This document shows positions 1 to 33,716 of a stretch of DNA of 36,078 bases, one piece after another. This stretch comes from a virus (Duplodnaviria > Caudoviricetes). The notes beneath the pieces are model-generated. The model saw only the letters and a program-made list of their open reading frames with translations, did not search any database and was not told the origin of the DNA. Where the stretch lies: positions 1 through 36,078 of the IMG/VR virus record IMGVR_UViG_3300008085_000069. One strand, written 5' to 3'. Each line of letters begins with the position of its first letter. The first letter of the stretch is position 1. Made by a program: the position numbers and the translations under genes.

Positions 1-123
1 AGGGACAGGCCTTCGAAGCGCCCGCCGAATATGGTATGCTCTCCGAAGGAGCCGTCAATGAAGAGCAAGCCGAATTTGATTTCGATGCGCTACCACCAGA
101 AGAGCAAAACGCTTCTGGACGGG
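1..123. repeat. Terminal direct repeat (copy 1), circular-assembly overlap
   Basis: 1-123 is identical to 35956-36078 (AGGGACAGGCC...CTGGACGGG), and a reading frame continues across the join. Confidence 0.97.
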
Positions 124-3100
124 ACGACGCCGCCGGAGACGGGGACGTTCAGCCCACAGGCCGCGTATCGGTCTATCGACCCAAAGGCTCCTCCCTCCCC
201 CGAAAAATCCGCGCCGAACTCGCCGCCCGCGTCGATCAGATCCAGACCGGAACCTTCCGAGTCGGTTTAGACCGGATCGAGTCGGCCGCCGACGCCGCCC
301 ACGTCCTGGCTTCCCTGCGCAAAAAGGCCAAGGAGAATTTTGCCGTCCTGGTCACCGGGGAAGAGAGCCAGCCCCTGGCCATCCTCGATGTCTCCACCGG
401 CAGCGCAAGCTCCTCCATCGTCGACCCCAAGGTCTTCGCCGGGGCCATCCTGGACGTTCCTGGCGCGAAGCACGTCTGGTTCGGCCACAACCACCCCACC
501 GGCATCACCACCCCCTCCAGCGAGGACAAGGGGATCACCTCCCGCCTGGCCGACCTGCTTCAGGATTCCGGCGTGGAGTTCTCCGGCCATGTGATCATCG
601 GCCGCGACGGCGACTATACCGCCCTCGGCACGACCGGCGCCGTGGACCGTTCCGGCCGGGCGACCGCCGCCGCCAGGCGGGGCGAGGTGCCGGTGATGGA
701 TTCGCGCCTCATGGCCCGCAGCAGCGAGGCGGCCATCTCCAGCGCCGACGCCGCCGCCGATTACCTGCGCGGAAAAGGGGACGGGATCCTGCTGGTCAAC
801 AACAAGCACGCCCCCGTCGCCTGGGTGGCCATGACTCCCGAGGAGATGGGCAAGCTTCGCCAGGGGGATGTCTCCCGGGGATCGGCCCTGCTTTTGCGGG
901 CGGCCAGCCAGTCCAACGCCGCGGCGATGATCGTCCAGGTAGAGAAGAGCGAGGACAGCGCCGCCGCCGAGAACGTGGCCCGCTTCGGCAACGCCTCGAA
1001 TATCCGGCCCCTGGATCTTCTGGCCGGTGGCAAGTCGGCTGCCGAAATGGGTGTCATGCCCACCAGCGCCACCTTCTACCAGGACACCGAAACCCTTCTG
1101 GCCGTCGTCGAGAGGCTCAAGGAGCACCTCGCCTACCTTCGGGAGAAGTACGGGGAGCGGCCCGACGAGCAGCAGCAGGAGGAGATCGACCAGGCGGAGC
1201 GGGAGCTCTTCCAGACCCTCTCTTCCGAGAAGCTCGGCTCCATCACCTTTAGCCCAGGCCTGCGCGAGATCTCCTTTTTCGAGAAGGCGGACCTCTCGAC
1301 CTTCCTGCACGAATCGGGACACGCCTGGCTGGAGGAGTTGCGCCAGGACGCCTTCCGCGACAATGCCCCCGATCAAGTGAAAGAAGACTGGCAGAGCATC
1401 GCCGCCTGGCTGGGGATCGATCCCGACAAGGAGATCCCCGTCGCCGCCCACGAGACCTTCGCCCGGGGGGTCGAGGCCTACATTCTGGAGGGGAACGCCC
1501 CTTCCGCCGAGCTGGCACCGGTCTTCCAGCGCTTCAAGGCCTGGCTGCTGCGGATCTACAAGAGCCTGAAGAACCTCAATGTCACCCTGAACCCGGACGT
1601 GCGCCAGGTCATGGACCGGCTGCTGGCCACCGACGAGCAGATCCGCCAGGCCGAGCAGATGCAGAGCTTCGCCCCCCTGTTCGCCGACGCCGCCGAGGCG
1701 GGAATGAGCGAGACCGGGTTCGCCGCCTACCGCAAGATCGCCGAAGTTGCCCACGAGGAGGCCGCCCGCGACCTGCAGCAGAAGCTGATGGCCGAGCTGA
1801 CCCGCGAGCAGAAGGCGTGGTGGAAGGAGGAGCGGGTCAAGGTCCGCGCCGAGGTCGAAGCCGAAGCGAAAAAGAATCCCGTCTATCAGGCTTTCCAGCT
1901 CCTGACCCGGGGGGAGGACTTCGAGGGGAACGCCACCGAGGGGTTCAAGATCGCCAAGGCGGCCCTGGTGAAGATGTACGGGGAGGCTTTCGTCAAGAGG
2001 CTCCCCAGAGCCTTCCAGCGGGTCTATACGAAAAAAGGGGGGATGCACCCCGACGAGGCAGCCGAGGTCTTCGGCTTTACTTCCGGCGACGAGATGGTGC
2101 AGGCCATGGTCAACACGCCGCCGATGAAGCAGGCCATCGAGGCGGAGACCGACGTGCGCATGCGCGAGCTCTACGGCGACATGATGCTGGACGGCTCCAT
2201 CGCCGACGAGGCGATGAATTCCGTGCACTCCGACCAGCGGGGGAAGGTCCTGCAAGCCGAGCTTCGGGCGCTGAGAAAGAAACAGCGCGAAGTCTCCCCC
2301 TTCGTCCAGGCCGCCCGAAAAGAACAGAAAGAAGCCGAGCGCGAGGGGCGCAAGGAGATCGAGGCCATCCCCCCCCTGCAGGCCTTTCGCCTCTTCGCTG
2401 CCCAGCTGATCGGGGCCAAGGCGGTCCAGGACATTCGCCCGGATCTCTACCTGAAGGCCGAGCAGAAGGCGGGACGGCTCGCCTTCGAGGCCGCGGCGAA
2501 GAAGGACTATGCGACCGCCGCCGAGGAGAAGCGCAAGCAGCTCTTGAATCACTTCCTCTTCATCGAGGCGCGAAAGGCCCGCGAAGAAGCGGAGAAGATC
2601 TACGATTACGCCCGGCGCCTGGAGAAGCCCGCTTCCCAGTCGCGGATCGGCAAGGCCGGCGGGGATTATCTCGACCAGATCAACGCCATCCTGGAGAAGT
2701 ACGAATTCAAGGCCGTCTCCCGGAGCACTCTGGAGAAGCGCCAGTCGTTACTGGAGTGGGCCAGGCAGCAGGAGGAGCTGGGACTGGAGGCGGCCATCCC
2801 CCAGGAGGTGCTAGACCAGATCGGCCGACGCAACTACAAGACCCTCTCCATCGACGCGCTACGGGCCGTCCGGGACGCCCTGAAGAACATCGAACACCTC
2901 TCCCGCGAGGCCAACCGCATCCGCATCGAGGGGGAGGAGATCGAGCTGAACGAGGCCGTCCGCGAGCTCTCGGCATCGGCCAATGAGCATTTCGATCCGA
3001 AGAAGCTCCCCATCGACAAGGAGACGCGCAGCTGGATTGAGAAGAAGAAGGAGACCCTCTCGCGCCTGGACGCCTCGCTGATCAAGGCCGAGCAGCTCAT

Positions 3101-14374: not shown

Positions 14375-14571
14375 ACCTCTATCCCCGCACCCGCCAGATT
14401 ATCCTGGCCGAGAGGGTGGTCACCGAACTGCTGACGGCCAATGAAGCCACGACGCCATTTCAGGCCAAGCGGGCGCTGAAGCTCGCCATCGCCACGGCGC
14501 AGGAGTACGAGCGGGAGCGGCAGATGGATCTGGCCTACAAGGAGAGAGGAAGGAAACAGCGCGATGTCTGA
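14371..14571 (+). CDS. Hypothetical protein
   Basis: GTGA overlap and SD GGAGG. Confidence 0.65.
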   Translation: MNLYPRTRQIILAERVVTELLTANEATTPFQAKRALKLAIATAQEYERERQMDLAYKERGRKQRDV

Positions 14572-14905
14572 TGTAACGGAAGCAAGACGACAGCCGACCT
14601 TGTTTGAGGCCGACCGCCAGACGATGACGGAGGCTATTGCTATCACCACCGACTCCCTGCGGGTCTACGGTGCCAAATATGATCACTGGGTAATCGCATA
14701 CAGCGGCGGGAAGGATTCCTCTGCCTTTGCCAGCCTGGTGCCACAACTGATCGCAAACGGCAACGTTCCGGTTCCGAAGAGCCTGACCGTCCTTTATGCC
14801 GATACCCGTCTCGAGCTGCCACCTCTACAGAACTCGGCCATGGTGATGCTGGACAAACTCCGGGAGCTCGGCTTCGATATCGTCGACATTCTGGAGACCT
14901 CCTGA
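14564..14905 (+). pseudogene. Truncated PAPS-reductase-family (DndC-like) protein, N-terminal 113 aa only
   Basis: PP-loop IAYSGGKDSS and YADTRLELP; lacks the later Cys cluster and P(I/L)..W motifs. Confidence 0.75.
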
Positions 14906-17597: not shown

Positions 17598-18074
17598 ATG
17601 GTGAACAAGGTAATTTTGCTGGGCAACCTGGGCAAAGACCCGATATTGAAGTACACCCCTTCGGGAGCGGCGGTCTGCACCTTCAGCGTCGCCACCTCGG
17701 AAAAGTTCAAGGACAAAAGCGGTCAGATGCAGGAGAAGACCGAGTGGCACAACATCGTCGTCTGGCGCCAGCTGGCGGAGATCTGCGGCAAGTACCTGCA
17801 AAAGGGGAAGACGGTCTACCTCGAGGGGAAGATCCAGACCCGCAGCTATGACGACCGCGACGGGGCGAAGCGCTATATCACCGAAATCGTCGCTGACCAG
17901 ATGCGCATGGTCGGGTCAAGAGAAGGGCAGGGGCAAGGGGGAGATCGTGGCGCACCGGGCAAACCTCGAAGCGAGGGACCCTCCGGTGGCGGGATGAGCG
18001 AGCCGCCTTTTAACCCGGATGACAATGTTTACTTCTTCCATCCCTACGACCTGATGGAAAGGACGATGCGATGA
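17598..18074 (+). CDS. ssb: Single-stranded DNA-binding protein
   Basis: [36 protein letters not shown]. Confidence 0.97.
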
Positions 18075-18322
18075 GCGGTTTCAAGACCCGCAGCGGCGAT
18101 CCGGCCGTCCAGGGGGAGGATGGCGGATGGTATCAGCCGACGGTGAACCCCTTCGGGCACGGCTGCTGTGACTGCGGCCTCTATCACCAGGTGGAGTTCG
18201 CGCTGGTCGATGAGGCGGGCAATCCGGTCCCCCTTCCCGAGGGGATGGCATTGGCCCTGCGCTTCGCCCGGGACGAGGAGGAGACACAAAGACTGCGGAG
18301 ACACAAAAACTGTTCCCCATAA
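18071..18322 (+). CDS. Hypothetical phage protein with CCDCGL.H motif
   Basis: ATGA overlap with ssb. Confidence 0.75.
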
Positions 18323-20617: not shown

Positions 20618-20823
20618 TGTACAATAAGATCGAGAACAATTTTCGGTACCACGCACCGAAACAAGGGCAACCGGAGAAGTACACCACCCTGAGAGAGAAG
20701 GCCAAGGAGTTGGCTTACCTCATTGATGAGCTCTGTCCCGACAGCCGGGAGAAGTCCGTCGCCCTGACTGAACTCGAAACGTCGGTGATGTGGGCCAATG
20801 CCTCCATTGCCAGAAACGAGTAA
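20617..20823 (+). CDS. Acb2/Tad1-like helical-hairpin protein (68 aa), candidate nucleotide-signal sponge
   Basis: FRYHAPK.GQPEKY..LREKAKELA.LIDELCPDSREKSVALTELETSVMWANASIARNE; SD AGGAGG. Confidence 0.7.
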   Translation: MYNKIENNFRYHAPKQGQPEKYTTLREKAKELAYLIDELCPDSREKSVALTELETSVMWANASIARNE

Positions 20824-20827
20824 GGCC

Positions 20828-21043
20828 ATGCTCAAGGCAGCCGCCTTCATCACCTGCGGAGTAGGAGTGCCCAATCCGCCCCCACCGCCGCCTCCCGCCC
20901 CGGAGATGCAGGACGAGGGGGTTGTGACCTCCAGGGACAACGAGCGGCGCAGACGTCGTGCGGCGGCCTCCAATACCTTTTTGACCCAGGGGCAGGAGAT
21001 GGGTTCCCCGTCGACGGCATCGAAAACCTTACTGGGGCAATAA
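20828..21043 (+). CDS. Small Pro-rich virion protein upstream of the portal
   Basis: C..PPPPPP...RRRR...T(F/I)LT...KTLLGQ pattern typical of pre-portal genes in BPP-1-like phages. Confidence 0.8.
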   Translation: MLKAAAFITCGVGVPNPPPPPPPAPEMQDEGVVTSRDNERRRRRAAASNTFLTQGQEMGSPSTASKTLLGQ

Positions 21044-21047
21044 ATAA

Positions 21048-22724
21048 ATGAAGAGCGAGAACCAGCAGATCATCGAGAAGCTGCAGGCGCGAAAAGCGGC
21101 GCTGATAACCGAGCGAGCCTCTTTTGTGCCGCACTGGCAGGAGATCGCCGAGTTCATCTCCACCCGCACCTCGCGCTTTCTGCGCTCGGATCGCAACCGC
21201 GGTGACAAGGTGAACCAGAAGATCATCAACGAGACGGCGACCCTGGCCCTGCGGACCCTCGAATCCGGCCTGATGGCGGGGATGAGCTCGCCGGCCCGCC
21301 CCTGGTTCGTCCTCGGACCGCCCGATCCGGAGATGCGCGAGTTCGGCCCGGTCAAGGACTGGCTCGACACCGTGACCCGGCTGATGCGCGACGTCTTCGC
21401 CCGCTCGAATCTCTACTCGGTCCTACCTAAACAGTATACCTCCCTCGGGGCCTACGCCACCGGGGCTTTCGGCCTACTAGAGGATGAAAAAGAAGTCATT
21501 CGCTGCTACCCGTTCCCCATCGGCAGTTACATGATCGACTGCAACGAGCGCATGAACGTGGACACCCTCTATCGGGAATTCTCCATGACTGTGCGCCAGC
21601 TGGTCGCCAAGTTCGGGGAAAAGAACGTCTCGCCCACCGTCAAGGGGATGTGGGACAACGGCAACTACGGCACCTGGATTCCGGTGGTACACGCCATCGA
21701 ACCGAACTTCGCCAACCTCCCCGGCAAGCTCGACGCCCGGGACAAACCCTATCTGTCGGTCTACTACGAGGAGGGCCGGGACATCCCCATGCGCCTCTCC
21801 GGCTTTGACGAGTTCCCCTCCATCGTCTCGCGCTGGCACGTCAACGGCGAAGACGCTTGGGGCACCCGCTGCCCGGGGATGGACGCCCTGGGAAGCGTCA
21901 AGGCGCTGCAGCTGGAGGAGCGGCGCAAGTACCAGGCCATGGACAAGATCGTCAACGGCCCGGTCAACGCCGACGCCACCCTGAGAAACACCGGGGCGGA
22001 TCTGCTGCCCGGCGGGGTCAACTGGGTTCCCAACCTCTCCCAATCGGCTGGTACTGCCATCCGGCCGATCTACGACATCGACGCCCGGATCATCGACGTG
22101 CTGCGCCAGGACATCATAGAGGTCACCCACCGGATCCGGCGGATCTTCTTCGAGGACCTGATGCTGATGCTCTCCCAAGGGGACAACCCGGAGATGACCG
22201 CCCGGGAGGTCGAGGAGCGCCACCAGGAAAAGGTGCTGGTTCTCGGCCCGATGATGGAGCAGCAAAACGACGACCTCTTTGACCCGCTGATCGATCGCAC
22301 CTTCAACATCATGCTGCGCCGCGGCATGTTCCCGCCACCGCCCGAGGAGCTGCAGGGTCTGCCGCTGCGGGTGGAGTACACCTCGGTCATGGCTCAGGCG
22401 CAAAAGCTGATCGGCATCGGCGGCATCGAGCGCTTCGTCGGTTTCGTCGGTAACCTCGCCCAGATGCGCCCCGACGCCCTGGACAAGGCCGACATCGACC
22501 AGGCCATCGACGAGTACGGCGACATGCTGGGGATTCCTTCCAAGATCATCGTCCCCGACGAGCAGGTCGCGGCCATCCGCCAGCAGCGGGCACAGCAGCA
22601 ACAGATGCAGCAGGCGGCGGAAATGGCCCCGGCCCTGGCGCAAGGAGCGCAGGCGGCCAAGGCCCTTTCCGAGACCAACGTGCAGGACGTGAGCGCCCTG
22701 ACGCGGCTGATCGGAGGGGCGTAG
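21048..22724 (+). CDS. Portal (head-tail connector) protein
   Basis: LESGLMAGMSSPARPWF, PGMDALG, MTAREVEERHQEK..VLGP, VEYTSVMAQAQK. Confidence 0.95.
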   Translation: MKSENQQIIEKLQARKAALITERASFVPHWQEIAEFISTRTSRFLRSDRNRGDKVNQKIINETATLALRTLESGLMAGMSSPARPWFVLGPPDPEMREFGPVKDWLDTVTRLMRDVFARSNLYSVLPKQYTSLGAYATGAFGLLEDEKEVIRCYPFPIGSYMIDCNERMNVDTLYREFSMTVRQLVAKFGEKNVSPTVKGMWDNGNYGTWIPVVHAIEPNFANLPGKLDARDKPYLSVYYEEGRDIPMRLSGFDEFPSIVSRWHVNGEDAWGTRCPGMDALGSVKALQLEERRKYQAMDKIVNGPVNADATLRNTGADLLPGGVNWVPNLSQSAGTAIRPIYDIDARIIDVLRQDIIEVTHRIRRIFFEDLMLMLSQGDNPEMTAREVEERHQEKVLVLGPMMEQQNDDLFDPLIDRTFNIMLRRGMFPPPPEELQGLPLRVEYTSVMAQAQKLIGIGGIERFVGFVGNLAQMRPDALDKADIDQAIDEYGDMLGIPSKIIVPDEQVAAIRQQRAQQQQMQQAAEMAPALAQGAQAAKALSETNVQDVSALTRLIGGA

Positions 22725-23051
22725 ATGGACCGGGAGAAGGCCAACCTGTGGCGCGAGCGCGAGATCGAGGACCTCAAGGCCGTGATGGATACCAAAGAGG
22801 GACGGCGCTTCATCTGGCGGCTGCTGGGGCAGGCGGGGATTTTTCACCCCTCCTTTGTGGTCGGCGCTCCCGACGTGACGGCCTTCAACGAAGGTGGGCG
22901 GAAGCAGGGGCTTAACCTCATGGCCGAGATCATAAGCGAGACCCCCACCAGTTTTTTGACCATGCAACAGGAGGTGATGAACGATGAGCAGCGAAGACGC
23001 GAAGAAGAGAAGAATTCTGCCGATTCTGATCGCGGCGATTCTCACGACTGA
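22725..23051 (+). CDS. Bbp19-like protein
   Basis: DLKAVMDTKEGRRFIWRLL...TAFNEGGR; between portal and scaffold. Confidence 0.85.
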   Translation: MDREKANLWREREIEDLKAVMDTKEGRRFIWRLLGQAGIFHPSFVVGAPDVTAFNEGGRKQGLNLMAEIISETPTSFLTMQQEVMNDEQRRREEEKNSADSDRGDSHD

Positions 23052-23700
23052 GGAAGCCGGGGAAGGAGCCGGGGAAGGAGCCGGGGAAGGAGCCGGGGAA
23101 GGGACGGGCGAAGGTGAAGGCGCTGGCGAGGGCACCGGGGAAGGTGCCGGCGAAGGCGAAGGCACCGGCGGTGAAGGTGAGGACGAGGGAGAAGGCGAAG
23201 GGGAAGGCGACAAGCCGACCGGCGCCCCCGAAGAGTACGACGCTTTCACCGGTCCCGAGGGGATGGAGCTGGACAAGGAGATCCTCGGCGAGTTCAAGCC
23301 CCTGGCCAAGGAGCTGAACCTCCCCCAGGAGAAGGCTCAGGCCTTTGTCGATCTGGCCGCCAAGATGATGCAGAAGCAGTTCGACGGTATCGTCGCCCAG
23401 CACCAGGAGAAGGTCGGCAACTGGCTCAAGGACGCGCAGCAGGACCCGGAGATCGGCGACGACATAAAGAAAGGTGCGGAGTCTGCCGCCCTGCGGGCCT
23501 TCAACACCATCACCAAAGGCGACGAGAAGGCCAAGTCCATGGTGGACGAGCTGGGCATCGGCAATCACCCCGAATTTTTGCGGATCTTCTACAGGATTTC
23601 GCAGCACATGCGCGAAGACACCTTTGAAATACCTGGCACCGGAGGCCAGGGCGGGTTCAACGACAAGCTGAACGCCCGCTACCCGAACACAAAAGACTAA
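22984..23700 (+). CDS. Capsid scaffolding protein
   Basis: Acidic GE-rich N-terminus, AKELNLPQEKAQ, GIGNHPEFLR; directly upstream of the MCP. Confidence 0.85.
   Translation: MSSEDAKKRRILPILIAAILTTEEAGEGAGEGAGEGAGEGTGEGEGAGEGTGEGAGEGEGTGGEGEDEGEGEGEGDKPTGAPEEYDAFTGPEGMELDKEILGEFKPLAKELNLPQEKAQAFVDLAAKMMQKQFDGIVAQHQEKVGNWLKDAQQDPEIGDDIKKGAESAALRAFNTITKGDEKAKSMVDELGIGNHPEFLRIFYRISQHMREDTFEIPGTGGQGGFNDKLNARYPNTKD
23055..23102 (+). repeat. 12-bp tandem repeat AGCCGGGGAAGG x4 (AGEG) in the scaffold, degenerating to ~23210
   Basis: Read directly from the sequence. Confidence 0.9.
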
Positions 23701-23722
23701 CCCAAAAGGAAGGAGCACAACC

Positions 23723-24766
23723 ATGAAAGTAGCAATTGTAAGGGGTTCTGCGGTCATCACCTCGACCATGGCGACCACCCACCCGACCTTGCTGGACCTC
23801 AAAACCCAGCTCAACCCGGATGGCAGCGTGGCCGATGTCATCGAGATCCTCGACCAGGACAACGAGTGTCTGGATGATCTCGTCATGATGGAGGGCAACC
23901 TGCCGACCGGCCACCGGGGAACGATCCGGGCCGGCATCTGCGAGCCCGCCTTCCGTAAGCTCTACGGCCGGGTCCAGCCGTCCAAGAGCGCCTACGTCCA
24001 GGTGACCGACAACTGCGGCATGATGGAGGCCTACCCCGAGGTCGACGCCACGCTGGCCAAACTGTCGGGCAACGTCAAGAAATTCCGCTACAACGAGGAG
24101 ATGGCGCATATCCAGGGTTTCAACCAGAAGCTATCGCGCTACGTCTTCTACGGCAACGAGGCAACCGAGCCCGAGGGCTTCACCGGCCTGGCGCCGCGCT
24201 TCAACAGCACCTCGGCCGAGAACGGCAGCAACATCCTGGCTGGCGCCGCCAATGGCGGCGGGGCCACCAACACCTCCATCTGGCTGCTGACCTGGGGGCC
24301 GCAAACCCTGCACGGGATCTTCCCCAAGGGGAGCAAGGCGGGGATCTCAACCGATGACAAGGGGGAGGTGACTTCCGAGAACGCCGACGGCCTGATGGAG
24401 GTCTTCCGCTCTCACATCAAGTGGGACTTCGGCCTGCATGTGAAGGACTGGCGCTATGCCGTGCGCATCCAGATCGACGCCGCCGCTCTGACCAAGAACG
24501 CCGCCACCGGGGGCGACCTGCTCGACCTGATGGCGCAGTCTCTGGACCTGATCCCCAACATGAACGCCGGCCGCACCGCCTTTTACTGCAACCGCACGGT
24601 GCGCGGCTTCATCCGTCGGCAGATCATGAACAAGACGGTCAACAGCACCCTCTCCATCGAGCAGCTCACCCGCGCCAACGGCGCCCGCGTCCACCTGCCG
24701 ATGTTCGACGGCGTGCCCATCCGCCGGGTGGACCAGCTGTTCAACACCGAAGCCAAGGTGGTCTAA
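23723..24766 (+). CDS. Major capsid protein (BPP-1/epsilon15 type)
   Basis: PTLLD, EGNLPTGH, FTGLAPRFN, TSIWLLTWG, DWRYAVRI, FDGVPIRRVDQL. Confidence 0.95.
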   Translation: MKVAIVRGSAVITSTMATTHPTLLDLKTQLNPDGSVADVIEILDQDNECLDDLVMMEGNLPTGHRGTIRAGICEPAFRKLYGRVQPSKSAYVQVTDNCGMMEAYPEVDATLAKLSGNVKKFRYNEEMAHIQGFNQKLSRYVFYGNEATEPEGFTGLAPRFNSTSAENGSNILAGAANGGGATNTSIWLLTWGPQTLHGIFPKGSKAGISTDDKGEVTSENADGLMEVFRSHIKWDFGLHVKDWRYAVRIQIDAAALTKNAATGGDLLDLMAQSLDLIPNMNAGRTAFYCNRTVRGFIRRQIMNKTVNSTLSIEQLTRANGARVHLPMFDGVPIRRVDQLFNTEAKVV

Positions 24767-24772
24767 ACCGAT

Positions 24773-24804
24773 AAGGGGGAGTGACCCTCCCCCTTTACCC
24801 TTTT
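24773..24804 (+). terminator. Hairpin after the MCP gene (partial terminator or stability element)
   Basis: AAGGGGGAG-tgacc-CTCCCCCTT followed by pyrimidines. Confidence 0.65.
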
Positions 24805-24822
24805 ACAGAGGAGATAAAGACG

Positions 24823-25380
24823 ATGAAAAACTACTTCAGTAAACTCGGATGGCTGACGGTGATCGGCCTGGTTCTGGCTGTCGGCCTTTCCTTTTTCGTG
24901 CATCCGGCCCTCGCCCTGGTCGGGGTAGCCGGGATGATCCTGGACGAGCGCCTGGAGTTTGCCGACGCCACCGCCCTGGACACCACTGGCGCGGCCACCA
25001 AGCTGGTGGGCGACGTGATCGATCTGGGAGCCGCTTCCCGCGATATCGGCCAGGGTGAACCGCTGTACCTGTGCATTCAGGTCGACACCGCCGTCACCTC
25101 GGCCGGGGATGCCACCGTCGCCTTCGAGCTGGCGTCCGATGCCCAGGCGGCCATCGCCGTGGATGGAAGCGCTACGTCCCACTTCAAAACGGCGGCCATT
25201 GGCAAGGCGAATCTGGTGACCGGCTACAGGGCGGTCATGGTGGCGCTGCCCTCTGGGACCTACGAGCGGTATCTTGGCATTCTGGCCACCGTCGGCACGG
25301 CGGCGCTGACCGCCGGCAAGGTCAACGCCTTCCTCACCAAGGACCCCAACGGCTGGAAAGCCTACCCGGACGGGATCTAA
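24823..25380 (+). CDS. Bbp16-like capsid cement/decoration protein with a hydrophobic N-terminal extension
   Basis: SD GAGGAG; core MILDERLEF...VIDLG...DIGQGEPLYL...YERYLG...AGKVNAFL...WKAYPD. Confidence 0.85.
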   Translation: MKNYFSKLGWLTVIGLVLAVGLSFFVHPALALVGVAGMILDERLEFADATALDTTGAATKLVGDVIDLGAASRDIGQGEPLYLCIQVDTAVTSAGDATVAFELASDAQAAIAVDGSATSHFKTAAIGKANLVTGYRAVMVALPSGTYERYLGILATVGTAALTAGKVNAFLTKDPNGWKAYPDGI

Positions 25381-25405
25381 GGGCAACCATTAGCGGAGAT
25401 TAGAT

Positions 25406-25666
25406 ATGAAAAAGCTCTGTTTTATTGAGGGGTCGCTCCAGGAGCTGGAACTGGACGAGAAGGGGCGGCCGATCGAGGCCAAGAAGGAGACCGCGCCCGA
25501 GAAGCCCAAGGACTTCGACCGCAAGGCGGCCATGGCCGAACTGACGGCGGCCGGAGTGGAGTTCAGAGGCAACGCCTCCAACGAGACCTTGGCCGAACTG
25601 CTGGCCGAGGCCAAGAAGGAGACCGCGCCACCCGAAGGCGGGACGGGGGATCAGGACGTCATCTGA
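25406..25666 (+). CDS. Small HeH/LEM-like domain protein
   Basis: AELTAAGVEFRGNASNETLAELL. Confidence 0.7.
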   Translation: MKKLCFIEGSLQELELDEKGRPIEAKKETAPEKPKDFDRKAAMAELTAAGVEFRGNASNETLAELLAEAKKETAPPEGGTGDQDVI

Positions 25667-25728
25667 TCGCCTGTTCATCGAGGGCCGGAGGACCTCTCTC
25701 CCCTCCGGCCCTCCATTGAACAGACGAT
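25666..25728 (+). promoter_or_regulatory. Long imperfect RNA hairpin
   Basis: ATCG.CTGTTCA..GAGGGCCGGAGG-loop-CCTCCGGCCCTC...TGAACAG.CGAT. Confidence 0.65.
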
Positions 25729-25745
25729 TTGAAAGGAGTGAGTTT

Positions 25746-26057
25746 GTGGACATAGATCCTTCGGCAGTGGTGGTCGGTCTGATCATGGCGCTGGGCAACA
25801 TCGGCGGCATTGGCATCATCGTCAAGTCATATACCAAGCGCATCGAGGACAACGAGCAGACCACCAAGGATCAGGGGCTGATGATGGCCCGCGCCGCCGA
25901 GAACCAGGCCCGCGCCGCCGAGACCCTGGAGCGGGTGCAGGACAATATCACCGAACTTTACAACAGTCGCAAAGACCACGACCGAACCCTGACCGCCATT
26001 GAGACCCTGCATGACATCAAGGGCTGCAAGACCTATTACCAGAGGAGCGACACATGA
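25746..26057 (+). CDS. Single-TM coiled-coil membrane protein (holin-like candidate)
   Basis: SD AAGGAG, GTG start; TM AVVVGLIMALGNIGGIGIIV. Confidence 0.6.
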   Translation: MDIDPSAVVVGLIMALGNIGGIGIIVKSYTKRIEDNEQTTKDQGLMMARAAENQARAAETLERVQDNITELYNSRKDHDRTLTAIETLHDIKGCKTYYQRSDT

Positions 26058-26380
26058 AAATGACCAGTATGGAACTGCCTGAGGGCCAGGGCAAGGCCGC
26101 AGATATGCCAGCAGAGATGGAGTCCCCTCGCTACCCGTGGGGGCTGCAGCTGCACCTGGAGAACGAGCAGATAAAAGCACTGGGGATCGAGAGCCTGCCC
26201 AAGGTGGGGCAGAGCCTGACCATCGTCGCCACGGTCAAGGTGACCCGCTGCGGCGAAGAGGAGATGGAAGGGAAGGAGGTCCGCCGGAGCATGGCCCTGC
26301 AGGTCACTGAGATGGGGATGGAAACCGGGCAGATGAACGAGCGCCTCAACGCCCGCTATCCCAATACGACGGAGGAGTAA
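26054..26380 (+). CDS. Capsid-associated 'staple'-like protein (epsilon15 gp10-like)
   Basis: YPWGLQLHL...LGI..LPKVG...LQVTEM. Confidence 0.75.
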   Translation: MKMTSMELPEGQGKAADMPAEMESPRYPWGLQLHLENEQIKALGIESLPKVGQSLTIVATVKVTRCGEEEMEGKEVRRSMALQVTEMGMETGQMNERLNARYPNTTEE

Positions 26381-27004
26381 GTGAAATCCGAGGTCGACCT
26401 CTGCAACCTGGCCCTGTTTCGCATCGGCGTGACCACCACCATCACCAGCCTCACCGAGCGCAGCAAGGAGGCCATCGTCTGCAACGGCGTCTATGAAAAC
26501 GTCCGGGACAAGGTTCTGGAGGCGGCCCCCTGGCCCTTCGCCCGCAAGTTCGCCGACCTGCAGCTGACCGGCAGCGCCCCCGACCGCTGGGCCTACCGCT
26601 ACCAATACCCCACCGACTGCCTGGCCGTGCGCTCGGTCCTGCCGCCGGTCCCCTCGGGACTCTCGCAAAATCTCTATCGGCAGTGGATGCAGCAGTACCA
26701 GGTTCCCTACGAGCTGGTGGAGGGGGCGGACGGCAACCTGACGATTTGCACCGACCGGGAGGAGGCGAATATCGAATACACCGTGCGGGTGACCAATCCG
26801 GTGCGCTTCTCCGCCAAGTTAACCTCCACTCTGGCCTGGGCCATTGCCGCCGAGATCGCCATTCCCCTGGCCAAGGGGATTGACTACGCCAAAAACGCCG
26901 CCGCCATGTACGAGAAGGAGCTGTTCGAGACTTTGGCCAAGATGCTCAACGAGGAGCGGGCGGACGAGGATCCGTTCTCCGAATTCGAGCGGGTGAGGTG
27001 GTAG
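26381..27004 (+). CDS. Tail adaptor (tubular protein A-like)
   Basis: SEVDLCNLAL..IG, WPFARK, WAYRYQYPTDCL. Confidence 0.88.
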   Translation: MKSEVDLCNLALFRIGVTTTITSLTERSKEAIVCNGVYENVRDKVLEAAPWPFARKFADLQLTGSAPDRWAYRYQYPTDCLAVRSVLPPVPSGLSQNLYRQWMQQYQVPYELVEGADGNLTICTDREEANIEYTVRVTNPVRFSAKLTSTLAWAIAAEIAIPLAKGIDYAKNAAAMYEKELFETLAKMLNEERADEDPFSEFERVRW

Positions 27005-29704
27005 ATGAACAATCCCATCGCCGTCTCCCAGCCGTCCTTCACCACCGGGGAACTCTCGCCGAGTCTCTACGGGCGGATCGATCTGGCCCGCTACTATACG
27101 GCGCTGAAGACCTGCCGCAACTTCATCGTGCGCCCCTACGGTGGGGTGATGAACCGCTCCGGCAGCTATTTCGCCGGCAGCGTCAAAGACCACGCCAGAA
27201 AGACGCGGCTAATCGATTTCCAGGTCTCCACCACCCAGACCTACGCCCTGGAGTTCGGCCACAACACCCTGCGCTTTTTTTCCGGCGGCGCTCTGGTGGT
27301 CTACCCGGTGGGGCATGAAAGCGCTGGCGAGCCGGTGGAGCTGGCCACCCCCTGGGGCGAGGCGGACATCTTCGCGCTCAAGGTCACCCAGAGCATCGAC
27401 GTGATGACCCTCTGCCATCCTGACTACCGCACCCGGCAGCTGTCGCGCTTCTCGCATACCGACTGGACCCTGGCCGAGTTCGCCAACGTCGAAGGGCCGT
27501 TTCTCGATATCAATGTCGACAAGACCCTGACCCTTTACGCCTCGGGCTACTCCGGCGACATCACCCTGACCGCCGCCACAGGCATCTTCACCGCCGCGAT
27601 GGTCGGCAGGCTCTTCTATCTCGAGCAGTCCCCGGACATCTCCACGCCGCGCTGGGAAGTTCAGAAGGCGATGAAGATCAACGACATCCGCCGGGCCGGC
27701 GTCTCCTACTACCAGGCTGTGCAGGCCGGGACCACCGGCACCGTGCGTCCCTCGGTGCTGGATGGGATCGAGAACGACGGCGACCCGGGGGTGGTCTGGC
27801 GCTACCTGCATTCGGGCTTCGGCATCGTGCGCATTACCGCCTTCACTTCCGAGACGGAAGTCGCCGCCACCGTCCTTTCGCGCCTGCCCGACTCAGCGGT
27901 CAACGGCGACATCACCCGCGCCATCACCAACGTGGTAGCGGGGAATGAGGCGGTCTACGACCCCGGAGGCGGGGGGCTGATCTCGCCGGCCACCAACGCG
28001 GTGGTCACCTGCCCGGCGCACGGATTCTCCGACGGCGACGACGTGAGCATCTCCGGGGTCACCGGCATGACCGGCATCAACGTCTCGGCCCAGATCATCG
28101 TCAACGACGTCAACAGCTTCCAGCTGTCGGGGGTGATCGGCAGCGGCAGCTACGGCGGTGGCGGCACGGCGGTCAAGACCCTCTCCGGGACCAACACCTA
28201 CAAATGGGCGGTGGAGGCCTGGGGAGGCGAGCAGGGCCACCCGGCAACCACCGTCTACCATCAGCAGCGGCAGATCTTCGGCGGCTCTATCGGCCGGCCG
28301 CAGACCGTCTGGCAGTCGCGGGTGGCGGGCTATATCGATTTCGGCCAGTCCAACCCCCTGCTGGACGACGACGCCATTGTCTTCAATCTCAACTCCAAGC
28401 AGGTCAACGAGATCCGCCACTTCGTGGAGATCGGCGAGCTGGTGGCCCTGACCTCCTACGGGGCCTGGAAGATCCAGAAGGAGCAGGGCAACCTCGTTCC
28501 CCTGGCCAAGTTCCAGGCCAAAGGAGGAGCCTCCCACGTCCCCCCGGTGGTGGTGGGGGATAACGCCCTGTTCGTCCAGGAGAAGGGCGGGGCGATTCGC
28601 TCCCTCTCCTACTTCTTCGACTCCGACTCCTACCGGGGGCGGGACCTGACCATCACCGCCAGTCATCTGCTCTTCGGCAAGACGGTGGTCGATTGGGCCT
28701 ACCAGGAGGCGCCGTTCAACTGCGTGTGGATCGTCACCGACGACGGCCAGCTGCTGGGGCTCACCTACATGCCCGACCAGGAGGTGATCGGCTGGCACCG
28801 GCACGACACCGATGGCCATTTCGAGAGCGTCTGCTGTCTCTCCGAAGGGGGGGAAGACGCCCTCTATGCGGTGATCCGCCGGCAGATCGGCGGCCAGACC
28901 AAGCGATACGTGGAGCGCTTCACCAGCCGCTTCGTCACCGATACCCGCGAGGCGGTCTTTGTCGACTCGGCCCTGACCTACGACGGCCGCAATATGGGGG
29001 CGGGGATCGGTTTCACCCTGACCACCTCTGGCGGTTGGACTTATCAGGACACCCTGACCTTCACCACGGACGGGGCTTTCTTCTCCGGCGCCGCCGATGA
29101 GGGGGACGTGATCGTTCTGCATGACGATGACGGCGAGTCGCTGCGGCTGACCATCATCACCTACGTCTCCGCCACCGAGGGCCTGGTCCTGCCCAACCGC
29201 ACCGTCCCCGAGGAGTGCCGAACCGGCTCCGGCTTCGATGTGGGCCGGGACACCTTCACCGGCCTCTCGCACCTGGAGGGGAAGACCGTCTCGATCTTCG
29301 CCGACGGCAACGTCGCCCCGCAGCAGGTCGTCACCGAGGGGCAGGTTGCCTTACTGACCCCGGCGGTGGTGGTCCATGCCGGCCTGCCCATTGAGGCGGA
29401 TCTGGAGACTCTGGACATCAACGCCCAGGGGCAGACGCTGCAGGACAAATGGAAGAACATCGGCGCCGTGCAGCTGATCGTGGAGAAGACCCGGGGGCTG
29501 TTTATCGGCCCGGACGCCGCGCACCTGCTGGAGGTCAAACCGGAGATGAGCGGCTATTACGACAACCCGGTGGCCGAGGTGACCGGCCCGCTGGAGATGA
29601 ACGTGCTCTCCGACTGGTCCCGGGGCGGGCGGATCTTCATTCGCCAGTCCGACCCCTTGCCGGCCACCATTCTGGCGGCCATTCCGCAGGTGGTGGTGTC
29701 ATGA
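27005..29704 (+). CDS. Tail nozzle (tubular protein B / Bbp13-like) with an inserted FCCH-like beta domain
   Basis: QPSFTTGELSP.LYGRIDL, QEVIGWHRH, LSHLEGKTV, QSDPLPATILA; insert AVVTCPAHGFSDGD.V.ISGVTGMT. Confidence 0.92.
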   Translation: MNNPIAVSQPSFTTGELSPSLYGRIDLARYYTALKTCRNFIVRPYGGVMNRSGSYFAGSVKDHARKTRLIDFQVSTTQTYALEFGHNTLRFFSGGALVVYPVGHESAGEPVELATPWGEADIFALKVTQSIDVMTLCHPDYRTRQLSRFSHTDWTLAEFANVEGPFLDINVDKTLTLYASGYSGDITLTAATGIFTAAMVGRLFYLEQSPDISTPRWEVQKAMKINDIRRAGVSYYQAVQAGTTGTVRPSVLDGIENDGDPGVVWRYLHSGFGIVRITAFTSETEVAATVLSRLPDSAVNGDITRAITNVVAGNEAVYDPGGGGLISPATNAVVTCPAHGFSDGDDVSISGVTGMTGINVSAQIIVNDVNSFQLSGVIGSGSYGGGGTAVKTLSGTNTYKWAVEAWGGEQGHPATTVYHQQRQIFGGSIGRPQTVWQSRVAGYIDFGQSNPLLDDDAIVFNLNSKQVNEIRHFVEIGELVALTSYGAWKIQKEQGNLVPLAKFQAKGGASHVPPVVVGDNALFVQEKGGAIRSLSYFFDSDSYRGRDLTITASHLLFGKTVVDWAYQEAPFNCVWIVTDDGQLLGLTYMPDQEVIGWHRHDTDGHFESVCCLSEGGEDALYAVIRRQIGGQTKRYVERFTSRFVTDTREAVFVDSALTYDGRNMGAGIGFTLTTSGGWTYQDTLTFTTDGAFFSGAADEGDVIVLHDDDGESLRLTIITYVSATEGLVLPNRTVPEECRTGSGFDVGRDTFTGLSHLEGKTVSIFADGNVAPQQVVTEGQVALLTPAVVVHAGLPIEADLETLDINAQGQTLQDKWKNIGAVQLIVEKTRGLFIGPDAAHLLEVKPEMSGYYDNPVAEVTGPLEMNVLSDWSRGGRIFIRQSDPLPATILAAIPQVVVS

Positions 29705-30165
29705 GGGCGAAGATCGTTCAAGCGATTCCCGAGCATATTCCGGCCATCGCCGCCCGCGTGCGCGAGGACGACCGGCGCGAGTTTTCCGCCCTGTTGACCA
29801 CCCCAGAGCGGGCCATGCGCTCCGGGCTCGACCTCTCTCCGGCGGTCTGGACTGGCCTGGTGGACGATATTCCCCTGGCGATGTTCGGCGTTGCTCCGGC
29901 CGGCTTTCTGACCCCCGAGACCGGCCGCCCCTGGCTGATCGGCACCGACCGACTGGACGAACATGCCCTTCTGTTTTTGCGCCGCTGCCGCCCCCAGGTG
30001 GCCCGGATGCTCGACCACTTCCCGGTGCTGATCAACTATGTGGCCAGCTTCAATCACGGGGCCATCGCCTGGCTGAAGTGGCTCGGCTTCCAGTTTGCGC
30101 CGCAACCGGTCCTTCTCGGCAAGGGTGTGCCGTTTTATCGCTTCGAACTGAGGAGGTCTGCATGA
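29701..30165 (+). CDS. GNAT-fold protein (T7 gp13-like position)
   Basis: AMFGV, PWLIGT, LINYV...N..AIAWLKWLGF. Confidence 0.8.
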   Translation: MRAKIVQAIPEHIPAIAARVREDDRREFSALLTTPERAMRSGLDLSPAVWTGLVDDIPLAMFGVAPAGFLTPETGRPWLIGTDRLDEHALLFLRRCRPQVARMLDHFPVLINYVASFNHGAIAWLKWLGFQFAPQPVLLGKGVPFYRFELRRSA

Positions 30166-30665
30166 ACATCATTAAGGGTGCGACCGTTATCACCTGCAAC
30201 CCCGCCATCATTGGGGCCGTTGCCGCCGTGGCCAGCGCCGCCGTCTCCGGTTATGCCACCTATCAGAGCGGGCAGACGCAGAAGAAGGCCGGCAAATACA
30301 ACGAGAAGATGGGCGAATACCGAGCCCTGGACGCCGCCCAGCGAGGAGCCTCCGAGGCCGCCGCCAAGCGCGACCGCGCCCGCCGGATCGCCGCCCAGCA
30401 GGCCGAAGGGATGGCCGCCAGCGGGGTGGACATTAACTCCGGCACGCCTTTGGCGCTGTTGACCGAGACGGCCGGGCTGGGAGAACTCGACGCCCTGACC
30501 ACCGTCAACAACGCCCGCCGCGAGGCCTGGGGCTACCAGACGCAAGGGACTCTCGACCGCTATCAGGGCAAGATGGCCGGCCGGTCTGGTGTTCTCAACG
30601 CCGGGGGAACCTTCCTCGGCGGGGCTTCCAACGCCTATTTCGGCTACAAGGCCGCAACCGCATAG
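30162..30665 (+). CDS. Internal virion/ejection protein (gp14-like)
   Basis: SD AGGAGG; C.P + hydrophobic stretch, AASGVDINSGTPL, NNARREAWG. Confidence 0.85.
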   Translation: MNIIKGATVITCNPAIIGAVAAVASAAVSGYATYQSGQTQKKAGKYNEKMGEYRALDAAQRGASEAAAKRDRARRIAAQQAEGMAASGVDINSGTPLALLTETAGLGELDALTTVNNARREAWGYQTQGTLDRYQGKMAGRSGVLNAGGTFLGGASNAYFGYKAATA

Positions 30666-30673
30666 GGGGCAGA

Positions 30674-31048
30674 GTGAAGAACCATCGGTTCAGTCAAAGG
30701 AGCAAGGAGCGCCTGAGTGGTGTCCACCCCGACCTCATCGCGGTTTGCTACCGCGCCCTTCTCTTGTCGCCTCACGACTTCGGCATCACCGAGGGGCTGC
30801 GCGACAAGGAGCGGCAGAAGGAGCTGGCCGCGCAAGGCAAGTCCACCACCCTGCACAGCTACCACCTGACCGGCAAGGCTGTGGATTTTGCCGTCTTCGT
30901 CGGGGGGAAGCTGACCTGGGACCTCGAATTTTACCGTGACGTGGCGGCGGCGTTTAAGCATGCCGCCAGCGAGTACGGGGTCTCGATCACTTGGGGGGGC
31001 GACTGGAAGACGTTTGTCGACGGTCCCCACATTCAGATGGAGGGATAG
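30674..31048 (+). CDS. Endolysin, M15-family L-Ala-D-Glu peptidase
   Basis: FSQRSKERLSGVHPDL, ITEGLR, SYHLTGKAVD, WGGDWK.FVDGPHIQ. Confidence 0.92.
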   Translation: MKNHRFSQRSKERLSGVHPDLIAVCYRALLLSPHDFGITEGLRDKERQKELAAQGKSTTLHSYHLTGKAVDFAVFVGGKLTWDLEFYRDVAAAFKHAASEYGVSITWGGDWKTFVDGPHIQMEG

Positions 31049-31049
31049 C

Positions 31050-31439
31050 GTGTTGAATAAGATTCTTGGACTCTTCGCTCCGCCTTCCTATCGGGCCGCC
31101 TCCAAGGAAGTTCGCGCCATCGCGGTCAACGGCTGCGGCACCGGGGGATGGAAAGGCTTCCTGGTTCCCGAGACGATGTGGGGGCTGGACATCCGCGAGG
31201 CCTGCAACATCCATGATTGGATGTACCTGGCCGGTGAAACCATCGCCGACAAGGACGAGGCCGACCGCGTTTTTCTGAACAACCTGCTGCGGCTGATCGA
31301 GTCCGGCAGCCGCTGGGAATGGCTCGCCGCTCTTCGCCGCCGCCGCGCCCTGAAATACTACGAAGCCGTCAGGGTCTTTGGTGGCCCGGCATTCTGGAAC
31401 GGGAAGAATCCCCCCGAAACCATGGAGGAAGCCGCATGA
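31050..31439 (+). CDS. Conserved phage protein with NGCG...C.IHD.MY...AD..F motif (PLA2-like/DUF1353-like)
   Basis: VNGCG, ACNIHDWMY, DKDEADRVFLNNL, YYEAVRVFG. Confidence 0.7.
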   Translation: MLNKILGLFAPPSYRAASKEVRAIAVNGCGTGGWKGFLVPETMWGLDIREACNIHDWMYLAGETIADKDEADRVFLNNLLRLIESGSRWEWLAALRRRRALKYYEAVRVFGGPAFWNGKNPPETMEEAA

Positions 31440-31870
31440 AGTACCCCATCGCCATGATCACCATCGCCGCTCTTTTCACCGCCGCCTGCTCGCCCATCGG
31501 CAAGGCCATCGAGAACAACGAGGTCGCCGCCGAGCTGGCCGTCACCATTGCCACCGGCCGGGTCCTCGACAAAAACCCGAGCTGGGCACCGCGGACCGTT
31601 GCCATCACCGCCTCCGCCGGCCAGCATATCACCGGGGATGCCATCCTTCACGAGCTGGAGGAGTATGTCGTCGGACAGATCGACTGGAGCGCTCTTTTTC
31701 CTGATGAGGAGATCGCCCTGCGCGTTCTGCTGGCGGCGGCCAAGGAAGAGATCGCCGCCTACCTCGACGGCAAAGGGTACGAAGACCCTGGCCAGGCCAA
31801 GGTGGAGGCCTCCAAGGTGCTGCTCTGGATCAATCGGGTCGCTTCCGCCTACGTGGCCAGAGGCGTCTAG
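31436..31870 (+). CDS. Predicted lipoprotein in the lysis cluster
   Basis: MKYPIAMITIAALFTAAC lipobox; SD GGAGGA. Confidence 0.7.
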   Translation: MKYPIAMITIAALFTAACSPIGKAIENNEVAAELAVTIATGRVLDKNPSWAPRTVAITASAGQHITGDAILHELEEYVVGQIDWSALFPDEEIALRVLLAAAKEEIAAYLDGKGYEDPGQAKVEASKVLLWINRVASAYVARGV

Positions 31871-31875
31871 AACCT

Positions 31876-32025
31876 GTGAGGTGCCCCCTGCAATACACCG
31901 CCGACCTGTTCAGCGAGGGACTATGCAACGGAACATTGAAAATCGCCGACCCGGAGACTCCCGACGAGCGGATCGTCTGCGAGAAGTGCGGAGCCACATG
32001 GAGCGACGGCCGGAAACCCGAATGA
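31876..32025 (+). CDS. Small zinc-ribbon protein (49 aa)
   Basis: MRCP...C.G.L...CEKCGATW; ATGA overlap with 32022; not in the ORF track. Confidence 0.6.
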   Translation: MRCPLQYTADLFSEGLCNGTLKIADPETPDERIVCEKCGATWSDGRKPE

Positions 32026-33716
32026 GGGGCGCGGCCATCCTCACCACCCCGACCGTGCCGCGCTACGAGCCGACGGAGAAGACCGCCGCCCTGCAGACCC
32101 CCAGAGCCCAAGGGGTGGGACCGGATGCCTTCGGTGGCGGGCTGGCCCGGGGCCTGGGGCAGGCTTCCGGGGACTACCTTTCGGTGCTCAAGCAGGAGAA
32201 GGATCGCGCCGATGCTACCGCCACCCTGGAGAGGCGGGTCGGTCTCGACACCAAGGAAACGGAACTCACCTGGGGGACGGACGATAGCCCAGGGTTTTTG
32301 CGCAGAGAAGGCAAGGAGGTCTTCGGCCTGCCCGAGAAGGTGCTCTCCGACTATGACCTCTACATCGGCAAGCAAGAGGCACAGATCCCCAACGAGGAGC
32401 AGCGCAAGGCCTTCCGTCTCTTTGCCCAGCAGAGGCGCAACTCCCTCAACACCAACTTGCAGCGGCATATCAGCACAGAGAGCGAGAAGTACGCCAAACA
32501 GGCCAATGAGGCGGCCCTCAAATCCACGTTGAACAACGTCGCTCTTTACTACAACGACCCGCAGCGGATCGAGCAGGAATTGAGATTCGGCCTCGGGGTA
32601 ATCGAAAGCAATACTGAGAATGCCTCCATCCCCCGCGAGGCGGTTGACCAGCGCCGCGAACTGCTGACCTCGATGATGCATAAGACCGTCATCGGGCGGC
32701 TGGCCGAGGACTCTCCGCTAAGGGCCAAGGCGTACTTCGAAGCAAACAAAGATCGTCTGACCGGAGATGATGCCGCCAAGATCGAAGCGACCCTGAAGCC
32801 CCTCGCCGAGGCGCAGCAGGGGATGGACGCCGCCGGGGAGATCTTCTACGGGGCAGGCGAGGATGTTCCCCTGGCCGACATGCTCAAGACCGTGCGGGAG
32901 AGACACCCTGATAACCCCAACGTGGTCAAGGCGGCCTCAGCCGAGATCAAGGGGCTCTACGCCGCCCGGGAAGAAGCCAACAAGCAGGCCATCGACGCGG
33001 CCGAAAGCGCCGTCTATGCCTCCATCGCCAAGGTAAAGCTGGCCGGCGGGGTACCGCGTCGGGGGGACGTGCCCCAGGCCGACTGGAATCGGCTGGCGCA
33101 GGTGGCGCCGGAGAAGGTGGAACAGATCCTCTCCAGCATGACCACCGGCCAGGGCTCCCAGCCGTCGACCGACCAGATCACCACCTGGGGGCTGCTGAAG
33201 ACCGACCCAAAGACCCTCACCAAGATCAATCTCGACTCCCTGCTGGTGAAGGGGAAACTCAACCAAGGCCAGTACAAGGACCTTATTACCGATCAGTTAG
33301 CCATCCGCCAGGGCAAAGGGGAGAAAGAGATCACCATCCTCACCAACAAGGCGGCCGTCGATACGGTCTTGAAAGCGGTGGGGATCACCCAGAACAAGAA
33401 CCCGGAGCGCTACGCCAAGTTCTACGAGGCGATGAACCGGCGGATGAAGGCCTTTGAGACGGAAAACGGCAAGGCCCCCAAACAGGAGGAGATCACGAAC
33501 ATGGCCCGGGGCCTGTTGTTCGAAGTCTCCCAGGACGTGAACTGGTGGCCCATCGACAAGTCCGTTCCGGCTTTCGAGGCGGACACGGAGAAAATCCGGG
33601 TACCGGCCAAGGACCAGGCGGCCATCACCCAGAAGCTCAAGACGCGGGGCATCCCGGTCACCGAGGCAACGATCCGGGAGGTCTACCTGGAGGCGCAAAA
33701 AAGGGGAGGCAGTTAA
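32022..33716 (+). CDS. Internal virion/ejection protein (gp15-like)
   Basis: PTVPRYE...AFGGGLARGL N-terminal pattern; helical; precedes the giant ejection protein. Confidence 0.8.
   Translation: MRGAAILTTPTVPRYEPTEKTAALQTPRAQGVGPDAFGGGLARGLGQASGDYLSVLKQEKDRADATATLERRVGLDTKETELTWGTDDSPGFLRREGKEVFGLPEKVLSDYDLYIGKQEAQIPNEEQRKAFRLFAQQRRNSLNTNLQRHISTESEKYAKQANEAALKSTLNNVALYYNDPQRIEQELRFGLGVIESNTENASIPREAVDQRRELLTSMMHKTVIGRLAEDSPLRAKAYFEANKDRLTGDDAAKIEATLKPLAEAQQGMDAAGEIFYGAGEDVPLADMLKTVRERHPDNPNVVKAASAEIKGLYAAREEANKQAIDAAESAVYASIAKVKLAGGVPRRGDVPQADWNRLAQVAPEKVEQILSSMTTGQGSQPSTDQITTWGLLKTDPKTLTKINLDSLLVKGKLNQGQYKDLITDQLAIRQGKGEKEITILTNKAAVDTVLKAVGITQNKNPERYAKFYEAMNRRMKAFETENGKAPKQEEITNMARGLLFEVSQDVNWWPIDKSVPAFEADTEKIRVPAKDQAAITQKLKTRGIPVTEATIREVYLEAQKRGGS

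Follow-up and report, generated by a model that had tools for sequence, protein, structure and literature searches.

A Thr-ending N-terminal leader shared by shell, scaffold and ejection proteins of a podophage group, with a small Cys/His protein as its candidate peptidase or reader

Removable N-terminal leaders on phage structural proteins are described in two main settings. In phage 80alpha, leaders of 13-14 residues on the capsid and scaffold proteins are cut by the host protease Prp, and two reports place the cut at F↓A within an L27-like motif, (D/N)LQ(F/L)F↓A (PMC5744158, PMC9405229). In T4, with its capsid-targeting sequence (CTS) and other gp21 propeptides, and in SPN3US and phiKZ, two further papers describe short N-terminal propeptides on ejection and shell proteins, whose removal needs a phage prohead protease (T4 logo LIE; PMC9026906, PMC10052503). 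Here we describe a short leader ending in Thr on five virion proteins encoded by IMG/VR record IMGVR_UViG_3300008085_000069 (Caudoviricetes), the whole 36,078 nucleotides of which are referred to below as the window.

Like the 80alpha leaders, the leader of the window is a shared short extension on non-homologous head proteins of a phage that has no prohead protease of its own, none of the canonical type being found among the Pfam and PHROG matches of its 47 open reading frames (ORFs). It differs in its Thr-ending site, in its presence on five or six proteins that include ejection proteins, and in the tested hosts, which have neither Prp nor a long L27. The likeness to T4, SPN3US and phiKZ lies in short propeptides on both ejection and shell proteins; unlike them, this is a small podophage with a Thr end and no detected prohead protease. 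A first-pass annotation, made from the letters alone, had drawn both analogies, and they hold as comparisons, although the defining features of neither system were found. The leader is a variant that differs from 80alpha/Prp and from the T4 CTS and belongs to neither, and its candidate enzyme is possibly new.

To our knowledge, podophages of this kind are generally not thought to mature by proteolysis, and little is understood of how their ejection proteins are chosen for entry into the head. Virions of podophage phiRIO-1 are reported to have shown no proteolytic processing (PMC4819975). The window itself is an epsilon15/BPP-1-like podophage by Pfam and PHROG searches, with gp7 capsid, Bbp16, Bbp19, T7-like portal and gp13-gp16 in synteny and with the gene order and families of that module (portal, Bbp19, scaffold, gp7 capsid, Bbp16, tubes, gp13-gp16). 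Unlike most epsilon15/BPP-1 members, whose proteins start with a plain Met, the group of the window adds the leader. Outside phage assembly, the lasso-peptide leader has a penultimate Thr, an upstream Gly and a YxxP box, and is cut by the B2 protease. The present leader resembles it in the upstream Gly and the conserved Thr at its end, and differs in having no YxxP box, a Gly-to-Thr spacing one shorter, and no B1, B2 or C gene among the Pfam matches of the window. A literature search on such a leader, its hosts and Prp, with most subscription journals and supplements outside its reach, found no description of this leader.

The Thr-ending leader and its distribution

The leader is found on the pre-portal protein, the scaffold, the major capsid protein and the gp14-like and gp15-like ejection proteins (Table 1). 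The five N-termini read exactly as the first-pass annotation wrote them, with Lys or Arg at P7 in four of the five (positions are counted back from the Thr, P1). The scaffold is read as such from its position and composition; its match, phrog_458, carries the PHROG label 'protease'. The consensus, ending [GA]-x-A-[IVF]-[IL]-T, has Gly or Ala at P6, Ala at P4 (44/48), Ile, Val or Phe at P3, Ile or Leu at P2 and Thr at P1, followed mostly by Cys or Thr at P1'. A scoring matrix built from 48 leaders of other phages, with the window excluded and the Thr fixed by construction, places the five ORFs at ranks 1-5 of 211, with scores of 15.7-23.9 and the next ORF at 9.7. The lowest of these scores, 15.7, is reached by 1 of 13,200 shuffled N-termini and by 0 of 7,466 internal positions. 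Across leaderless loci, 11 of 2,316 ORFs score at least 13, and on reading by eye none is apparently the true start of a head protein. In the window, the portal, the tail tubes and the non-virion genes do not carry the leader, as first annotated, and neither do gp13 and gp16. All four Thr codons are used, Ala codons are varied and variation across leaders is synonymous, so the constraint acts on the protein; an RNA-level signal is ruled out by the same variation.

The starts assigned to the five genes are supported individually. Strong Shine-Dalgarno (SD) sequences at 22984, 23723 and 30162, ATGA coupling at 32022 and a weak SD at 20828 were all confirmed. The 20828 start sits 4 nt past the stop of an Acb2-like gene, and its homologues in two relatives (L003 and L069) are preceded by AGGAGG. 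There is no downstream Met near the family start in the pre-portal, scaffold, gp14 and gp15 proteins. The internal in-frame Met16 of the capsid (23768) has no SD and is Leu in L003 and L069, so the upstream start must be used in those two.

The leader is an extension relative to homologues, as had been proposed: PHROG profiles start at capsid residue 17, gp14 residue 12 and gp15 residue 10, each of these alignments beginning at profile position 2. Leaderless gp14 and pre-portal proteins often start with M-C and leaderless capsids with M-S/A/T, and the Thr aligns with that Met; leaderless Bbp16 cement proteins start with M-I or M-Y, and there the residue after the Thr aligns with Met. Most homologues thus have Met at the Thr position or at the next residue, with gp15 ambiguous by one residue. 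Met is removed before small residues. A cut after the Thr would give about the N-terminus of leaderless homologues in each family, because the Thr replaces a removable Met (M-C, M-S) and the next residue replaces a retained one (M-I, M-Y, Bbp16). Autoproteolysis requiring Ser, Thr or Cys after the Thr was rejected: 44 of 48 leaders have such a residue, but Ala and Val occur, so it is not required.

Among 66 capsid loci (duplicates collapsed, some loci truncated), only copies of the window phage and L003 show the leader. The same five proteins are tagged in G402 and in the G001 prophage, and six, the five plus the Bbp16 cement protein, in G403, G404, G411 and G408, with a degenerate motif on the G403 scaffold. 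G405 has five tagged proteins, gp14 not among them, and the fragment L084 has the capsid alone. The leader is conserved with synonymous codons in G402, G001, G403, G404, G405, G408, G411 and L084. In the siphophage G407, a scaffold of another family (phrog_1793) is tagged, which brings the scaffold families to two overall. Of 120 homologues of gp14, the first 50 include 22 with a score of at least 10 and the other 70 include none; two of the 22 are doubtful and 17 belonged to the training set of the matrix. A leader-first pattern scan of IMG/VR returned 44 stretches. Ten contain at least two tagged ORFs and belong without exception to this podophage group, 9 have single matches, mostly signal-peptide-like, and 25 have none. 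The tag is real, clade-wide and portable.

Tagged capsids fall in three lineages, and a quick tree of 34 rows requires three label changes, at least two of them forced by starred branches. Portal, TerL and gp16 tie the leader phages closer to each other than to the leaderless G406. The simplest reading would be that one phage group swapped capsid genes and tagged each.

Other N-terminal extensions were seen in these phages. A second type, hydrophobic and Gly-ending, occurs on Bbp16 of the window, L003 and L069, and on the pre-portal, scaffold and capsid proteins of prophage G310 (L073), where it also stops just before the pre-portal Cys. On the G408 capsid, a hydrophobic stretch and the Thr motif occur together. 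A third type, mostly Pro-Gly-Phe before Gly-Gly, is found only on the pre-portal protein (L008, L010, L014, L019, L036 and L066), and the scaffolds of prophages L075 and L076 have a basic/hydrophobic extension ahead of an internal Met-Gly. An unrelated viral contig encodes a 181-aa protein (L280:3589-4134, minus strand) with a single high-scoring Thr-Cys start and no second tagged protein there.

Table 1. Features of the window discussed in the text (aa, amino acids; the arrow marks the end of the leader)
Feature	Position	Strand	Remarks
Pre-portal leader, 9 aa, MLKAAAFIT↓CG	20828..20854	+	gene 20828-21043, phrog_831
Scaffold leader, 21 aa, ...PILIAAILT↓TE	22984..23046	+	gene 22984-23700, phrog_458
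Major capsid leader, 13 aa, MKVAIVRGSAVIT↓ST	23723..23761	+	gene 23723-24766, PF20911/phrog_212
gp14-like ejection protein leader, 11 aa, MNIIKGATVIT↓CNP	30162..30194	+	gene 30162-30665, PF24072/phrog_418
gp15-like ejection protein leader, 8 aa, MRGAAILT↓TP	32022..32045	+	gene 32022-33716, phrog_1044/10475
83-aa Cys/His protein, NPF-x-H-x-CCDCGL-x-H	18071..18322	+	matches no known family or fold; candidate peptidase or reader of the leader
Bbp16-like cement protein, different hydrophobic 37-aa extension	24823..24933	+	Thr leader there in G403, G404, G405, G408, G411
RadC-like JAB domain inside gp16	279..626	+	rejected as leader peptidase
HExxH motif in gp16	1308..1322	+	rival enzyme; also in phages without this leader
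49-aa four-Cys ORF	31876-32025	+	stop overlaps gp15 start (ATGA); supports 32022 start; no PHROG match
gp16 gene	33717-36078, continuing 1-4967 across terminal repeat	+	spans record ends
PAPS-reductase-like gene	14564-14905		apparently truncated
Acb2/Tad1-family anti-defence gene	20614-20823		PF24729, E 3e-23
DUF1353/phospholipase-A2-like ORF	31050-31439		in lysis module

The 83-residue protein encoded at 18071

The gene at 18071, which the first-pass annotation had passed over, encodes an 83-aa Cys/His protein and is, among the matches listed, the one gene outside the virion module that is common to six leader phages and absent from G406. Its profile matches 8 of 8 leader-bearing records versus 0 of 42 others; among virus records at least 90% complete, the figures are 4 of 4 versus 0 of 7. 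G202 and G405 in these sets are one and the same prophage. A further set gave matches in 3 of 5, and the two without a match are fragments. Only 1 of 401 genomes of the phylum matches the profile, and because that match lies inside a prophage, 18071 is not a host gene.

A search with the 18071 protein, blind to the leader, returned 12 loci, six of which are known phages or copies of them. L137, L138 and L140 represent a new tagged lineage (G408/G409, with six tagged proteins), and L144 is the siphophage G407, with a tape measure and its tagged phrog_1793 scaffold. L143 stops before the head genes, and the weak matches L145 and L146 show no leader. Protein P0155 is a fusion in which an 18071-type domain precedes gp15; this gp15 shares 46% identity with that of the window, and the junction lies at the position of the leader's Thr. 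Residues C32, C33, C35 and H39 of the 18071 protein are invariant. NPF is present in 40 of 46 close versus 8 of 108 distant members, and only the NPF subfamily tracks the leader. The wider CCDCGLVH family (L191-L260) is widespread and unannotated in phages, with several loci near terminase or head genes; cultured phages gave one weak match to 18071 and three to a distant member. Prophage G310, with its second-type leader, has no 18071 homologue.

The AlphaFold model of the 18071 protein is confident, with a predicted local distance difference test (pLDDT) of 93; fold searches with it and with a second model of pLDDT 81 gave no significant match. The best VIA comparison reached Z 2.7 (root-mean-square deviation 3.5, 66 residues aligned), and an ESM Atlas search returned hypothetical viral clusters only.

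These sequence patterns suggest that the shared tag is probably a removable assembly leader that is cut. The fuller proposal, in which the cut falls after the Thr and the 18071 protein both recognises and makes it, is put forward tentatively and may fall somewhat short of an even chance. Until it is cut, the tag would keep its carriers as precursors or bring them together inside the procapsid. The 18071 protein may bind Zn through its invariant Cys and His residues, and, more speculatively, a spare Cys together with the subfamily His30 could act as the catalyst. It is possible, though rather doubtful, that 18071 represents a new class of leader peptidase or reader, with a portable, Thr-ending tag of 8-21 residues put on acquired capsid, scaffold, cement and ejection proteins and acting as a proteolytic maturation switch in T7-supergroup podophages and a siphophage.

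Several observations weigh against the proposed role of 18071 and the cut. Two leader-bearing records, G410 and G411, have no 18071 gene, both being fragments (18% and 64% complete, respectively), and few independent events underlie the co-occurrence, namely a single podophage group, a siphophage and a fusion. P0155 is a single protein on one 3.9-kb contig and could be a chimera produced by a frameshift; the score at its junction, -2.6, is not that of a leader, and a search for its locus did not find it, a search for longer forms giving two other proteins. The extra His of the 18071 subfamily also occurs in leaderless loci. The wider family is broad, with 461 matches; in 70 other viral loci that encode distant members, no ORF within 10 kb scores at least 15, and 6 of 13 such loci inspected by eye have head genes without this leader. 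Metagenome contigs gave no further locus with both head genes and a close 18071 member. In G402, G404 and G405, the 18071 gene lies among replication and early genes. The protein has no Pfam family at E 0.05 and no PHROG or PDB sequence match, and its model shows no protease-like fold, with nothing from Foldseek at E 0.001, a result that decides neither for a new fold nor for the absence of a known one. Neither gp14 of G405 and L084 nor the capsid of G407 carries the tag, and cleavage of the analogous 80alpha leader is reported to be dispensable (PMC5744158).

Should 18071 cut the tag, it would represent a site-specific protease of very small size and unknown fold, and its family, widespread and unannotated in phages, would gain a first function. 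Should it bind without cutting, the tag may act as a signal for loading into the capsid, much as the T4 CTS does. One tag across shell, scaffold and ejection proteins would offer a direct handle on the selection of ejection proteins, and a named 83-aa candidate makes the question testable by co-expression in E. coli.

Alternative explanations of the leader

The tag may instead remain uncut, or be cut incidentally, and serve as a docking strand that gathers scaffold, capsid, cement and ejection proteins, or as a chaperone-bound segment, possibly with 18071 as an adaptor; the P0155 fusion would then replace the tag. We consider this unlikely but worth real weight. The canonical motif is lost in P0155 just where the domain is fused, and no protease fold was found for the 18071 protein. 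The 80alpha scaffold leader is reported to be required for assembly, with its cleavage not required (PMC5744158), and T4 CTS targeting to be separable from processing (PMC9026906). However, the sharp Thr end followed by a small residue, matching leaderless N-termini, resembles a protease site, and the tag is found on external proteins (capsid and cement), not on internal ones alone.

A cytoplasmic protease of the Desulfuromonadia host could also cut the tag, as Prp does in 80alpha, although this appears improbable. The window phage likely has a Desulfuromonadia host. Its close relative L069 (capsid 70% identical) is a leader-bearing prophage in a record titled Desulfuromonadales bacterium, with host genes flanking, and two proteins of a second prophage (P0015 and P0129) are labelled Geobacter by NCBI. 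The lack of a canonical prohead protease in the window is also consistent with a host enzyme. Against it, a Prp/L27-type system was rejected, with Prp (PF04327) in 0 of 3 Desulfuromonadia genomes (positive controls included) and L27 beginning Met-Ala-His, with no extension, in all three, genomes whose completeness is not given and which may not include the window's own host. The scan of host protein starts suggested in the first-pass annotation found the strict leader motif at none in two genomes; the strict DNA pattern, which left Ser AGY codons uncovered at P5, gave 35 matches, of which 30 loci were read, the only true starts among them being those of prophage genes. A looser pattern anchored on the SD matched 155 times, and the 150 matches listed were, by eye, apparently ordinary folded or signal-peptide starts. 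Within the class of these hosts, this leader is missing from 8 of 10 prophage capsid matches.

Cleavage inside the procapsid by the HExxH zincin domain of gp16, or by another phage metallopeptidase, is very unlikely. The motif is found in gp16 of all eight leader-bearing podophage records tested, and the siphophage G407, which has no gp16, carries a separate HExxH ORF. The same motif is present in gp16 of G406 and G310, both without this type of leader, so the HExxH candidate of the first-pass annotation does not discriminate. Its other candidate, the phage JAB domain, was rejected as the leader enzyme, since it occurs in only 2 of 9 leader-bearing records. Among 11 records, the RadC-like JAB in gp16 is confined to the window and the G001 prophage, as an accessory module of a polyvalent ejection protein.

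Class III prepilin signals consist of [KR]G followed by the cut and then a hydrophobic H-domain. Mimicry of such a signal with cleavage by PilD, also raised at first, has almost nothing to recommend it: gp14, gp15 and several capsids do contain KG↓A or RG↓A, and gp14 has a hydrophobic stretch downstream, but no more than 30 of 48 leaders have Gly there, in four of the five proteins (scaffold, capsid, pre-portal and gp15) the site is not followed by a hydrophobic segment, and the conserved boundary is the Thr five residues beyond. A start-codon artefact or chance likeness, with the real starts downstream, is equally far-fetched: the in-frame capsid Met16 and the weak SD at 20828 would allow it, but Met16 is replaced in relatives, the other four proteins offer no alternative Met, and chance stands at 1 in 13,200 per gene.

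Other features of the window

At 36 kb, the window covers an entire virus record, a complete podophage with direct terminal repeats and a G+C content of 62%. Its module comprises TerS, TerL, the Acb2-like gene, the pre-portal protein, portal, Bbp19, scaffold and gp7 capsid, and continues with Bbp16, tail tubes, gp13, gp14, lysis genes, gp15 and a large gp16. The 49-aa four-Cys ORF occupies the place where P0155 has its 18071-type domain. The PAPS-reductase-like gene matches only the first 100 of 404 profile positions. The Acb2/Tad1-family anti-defence gene lies between TerL and the pre-portal gene. The lysis module is inserted between gp14 and gp15, and its DUF1353/phospholipase-A2-like ORF has a phrog_1158 relative in the siphophage G407.

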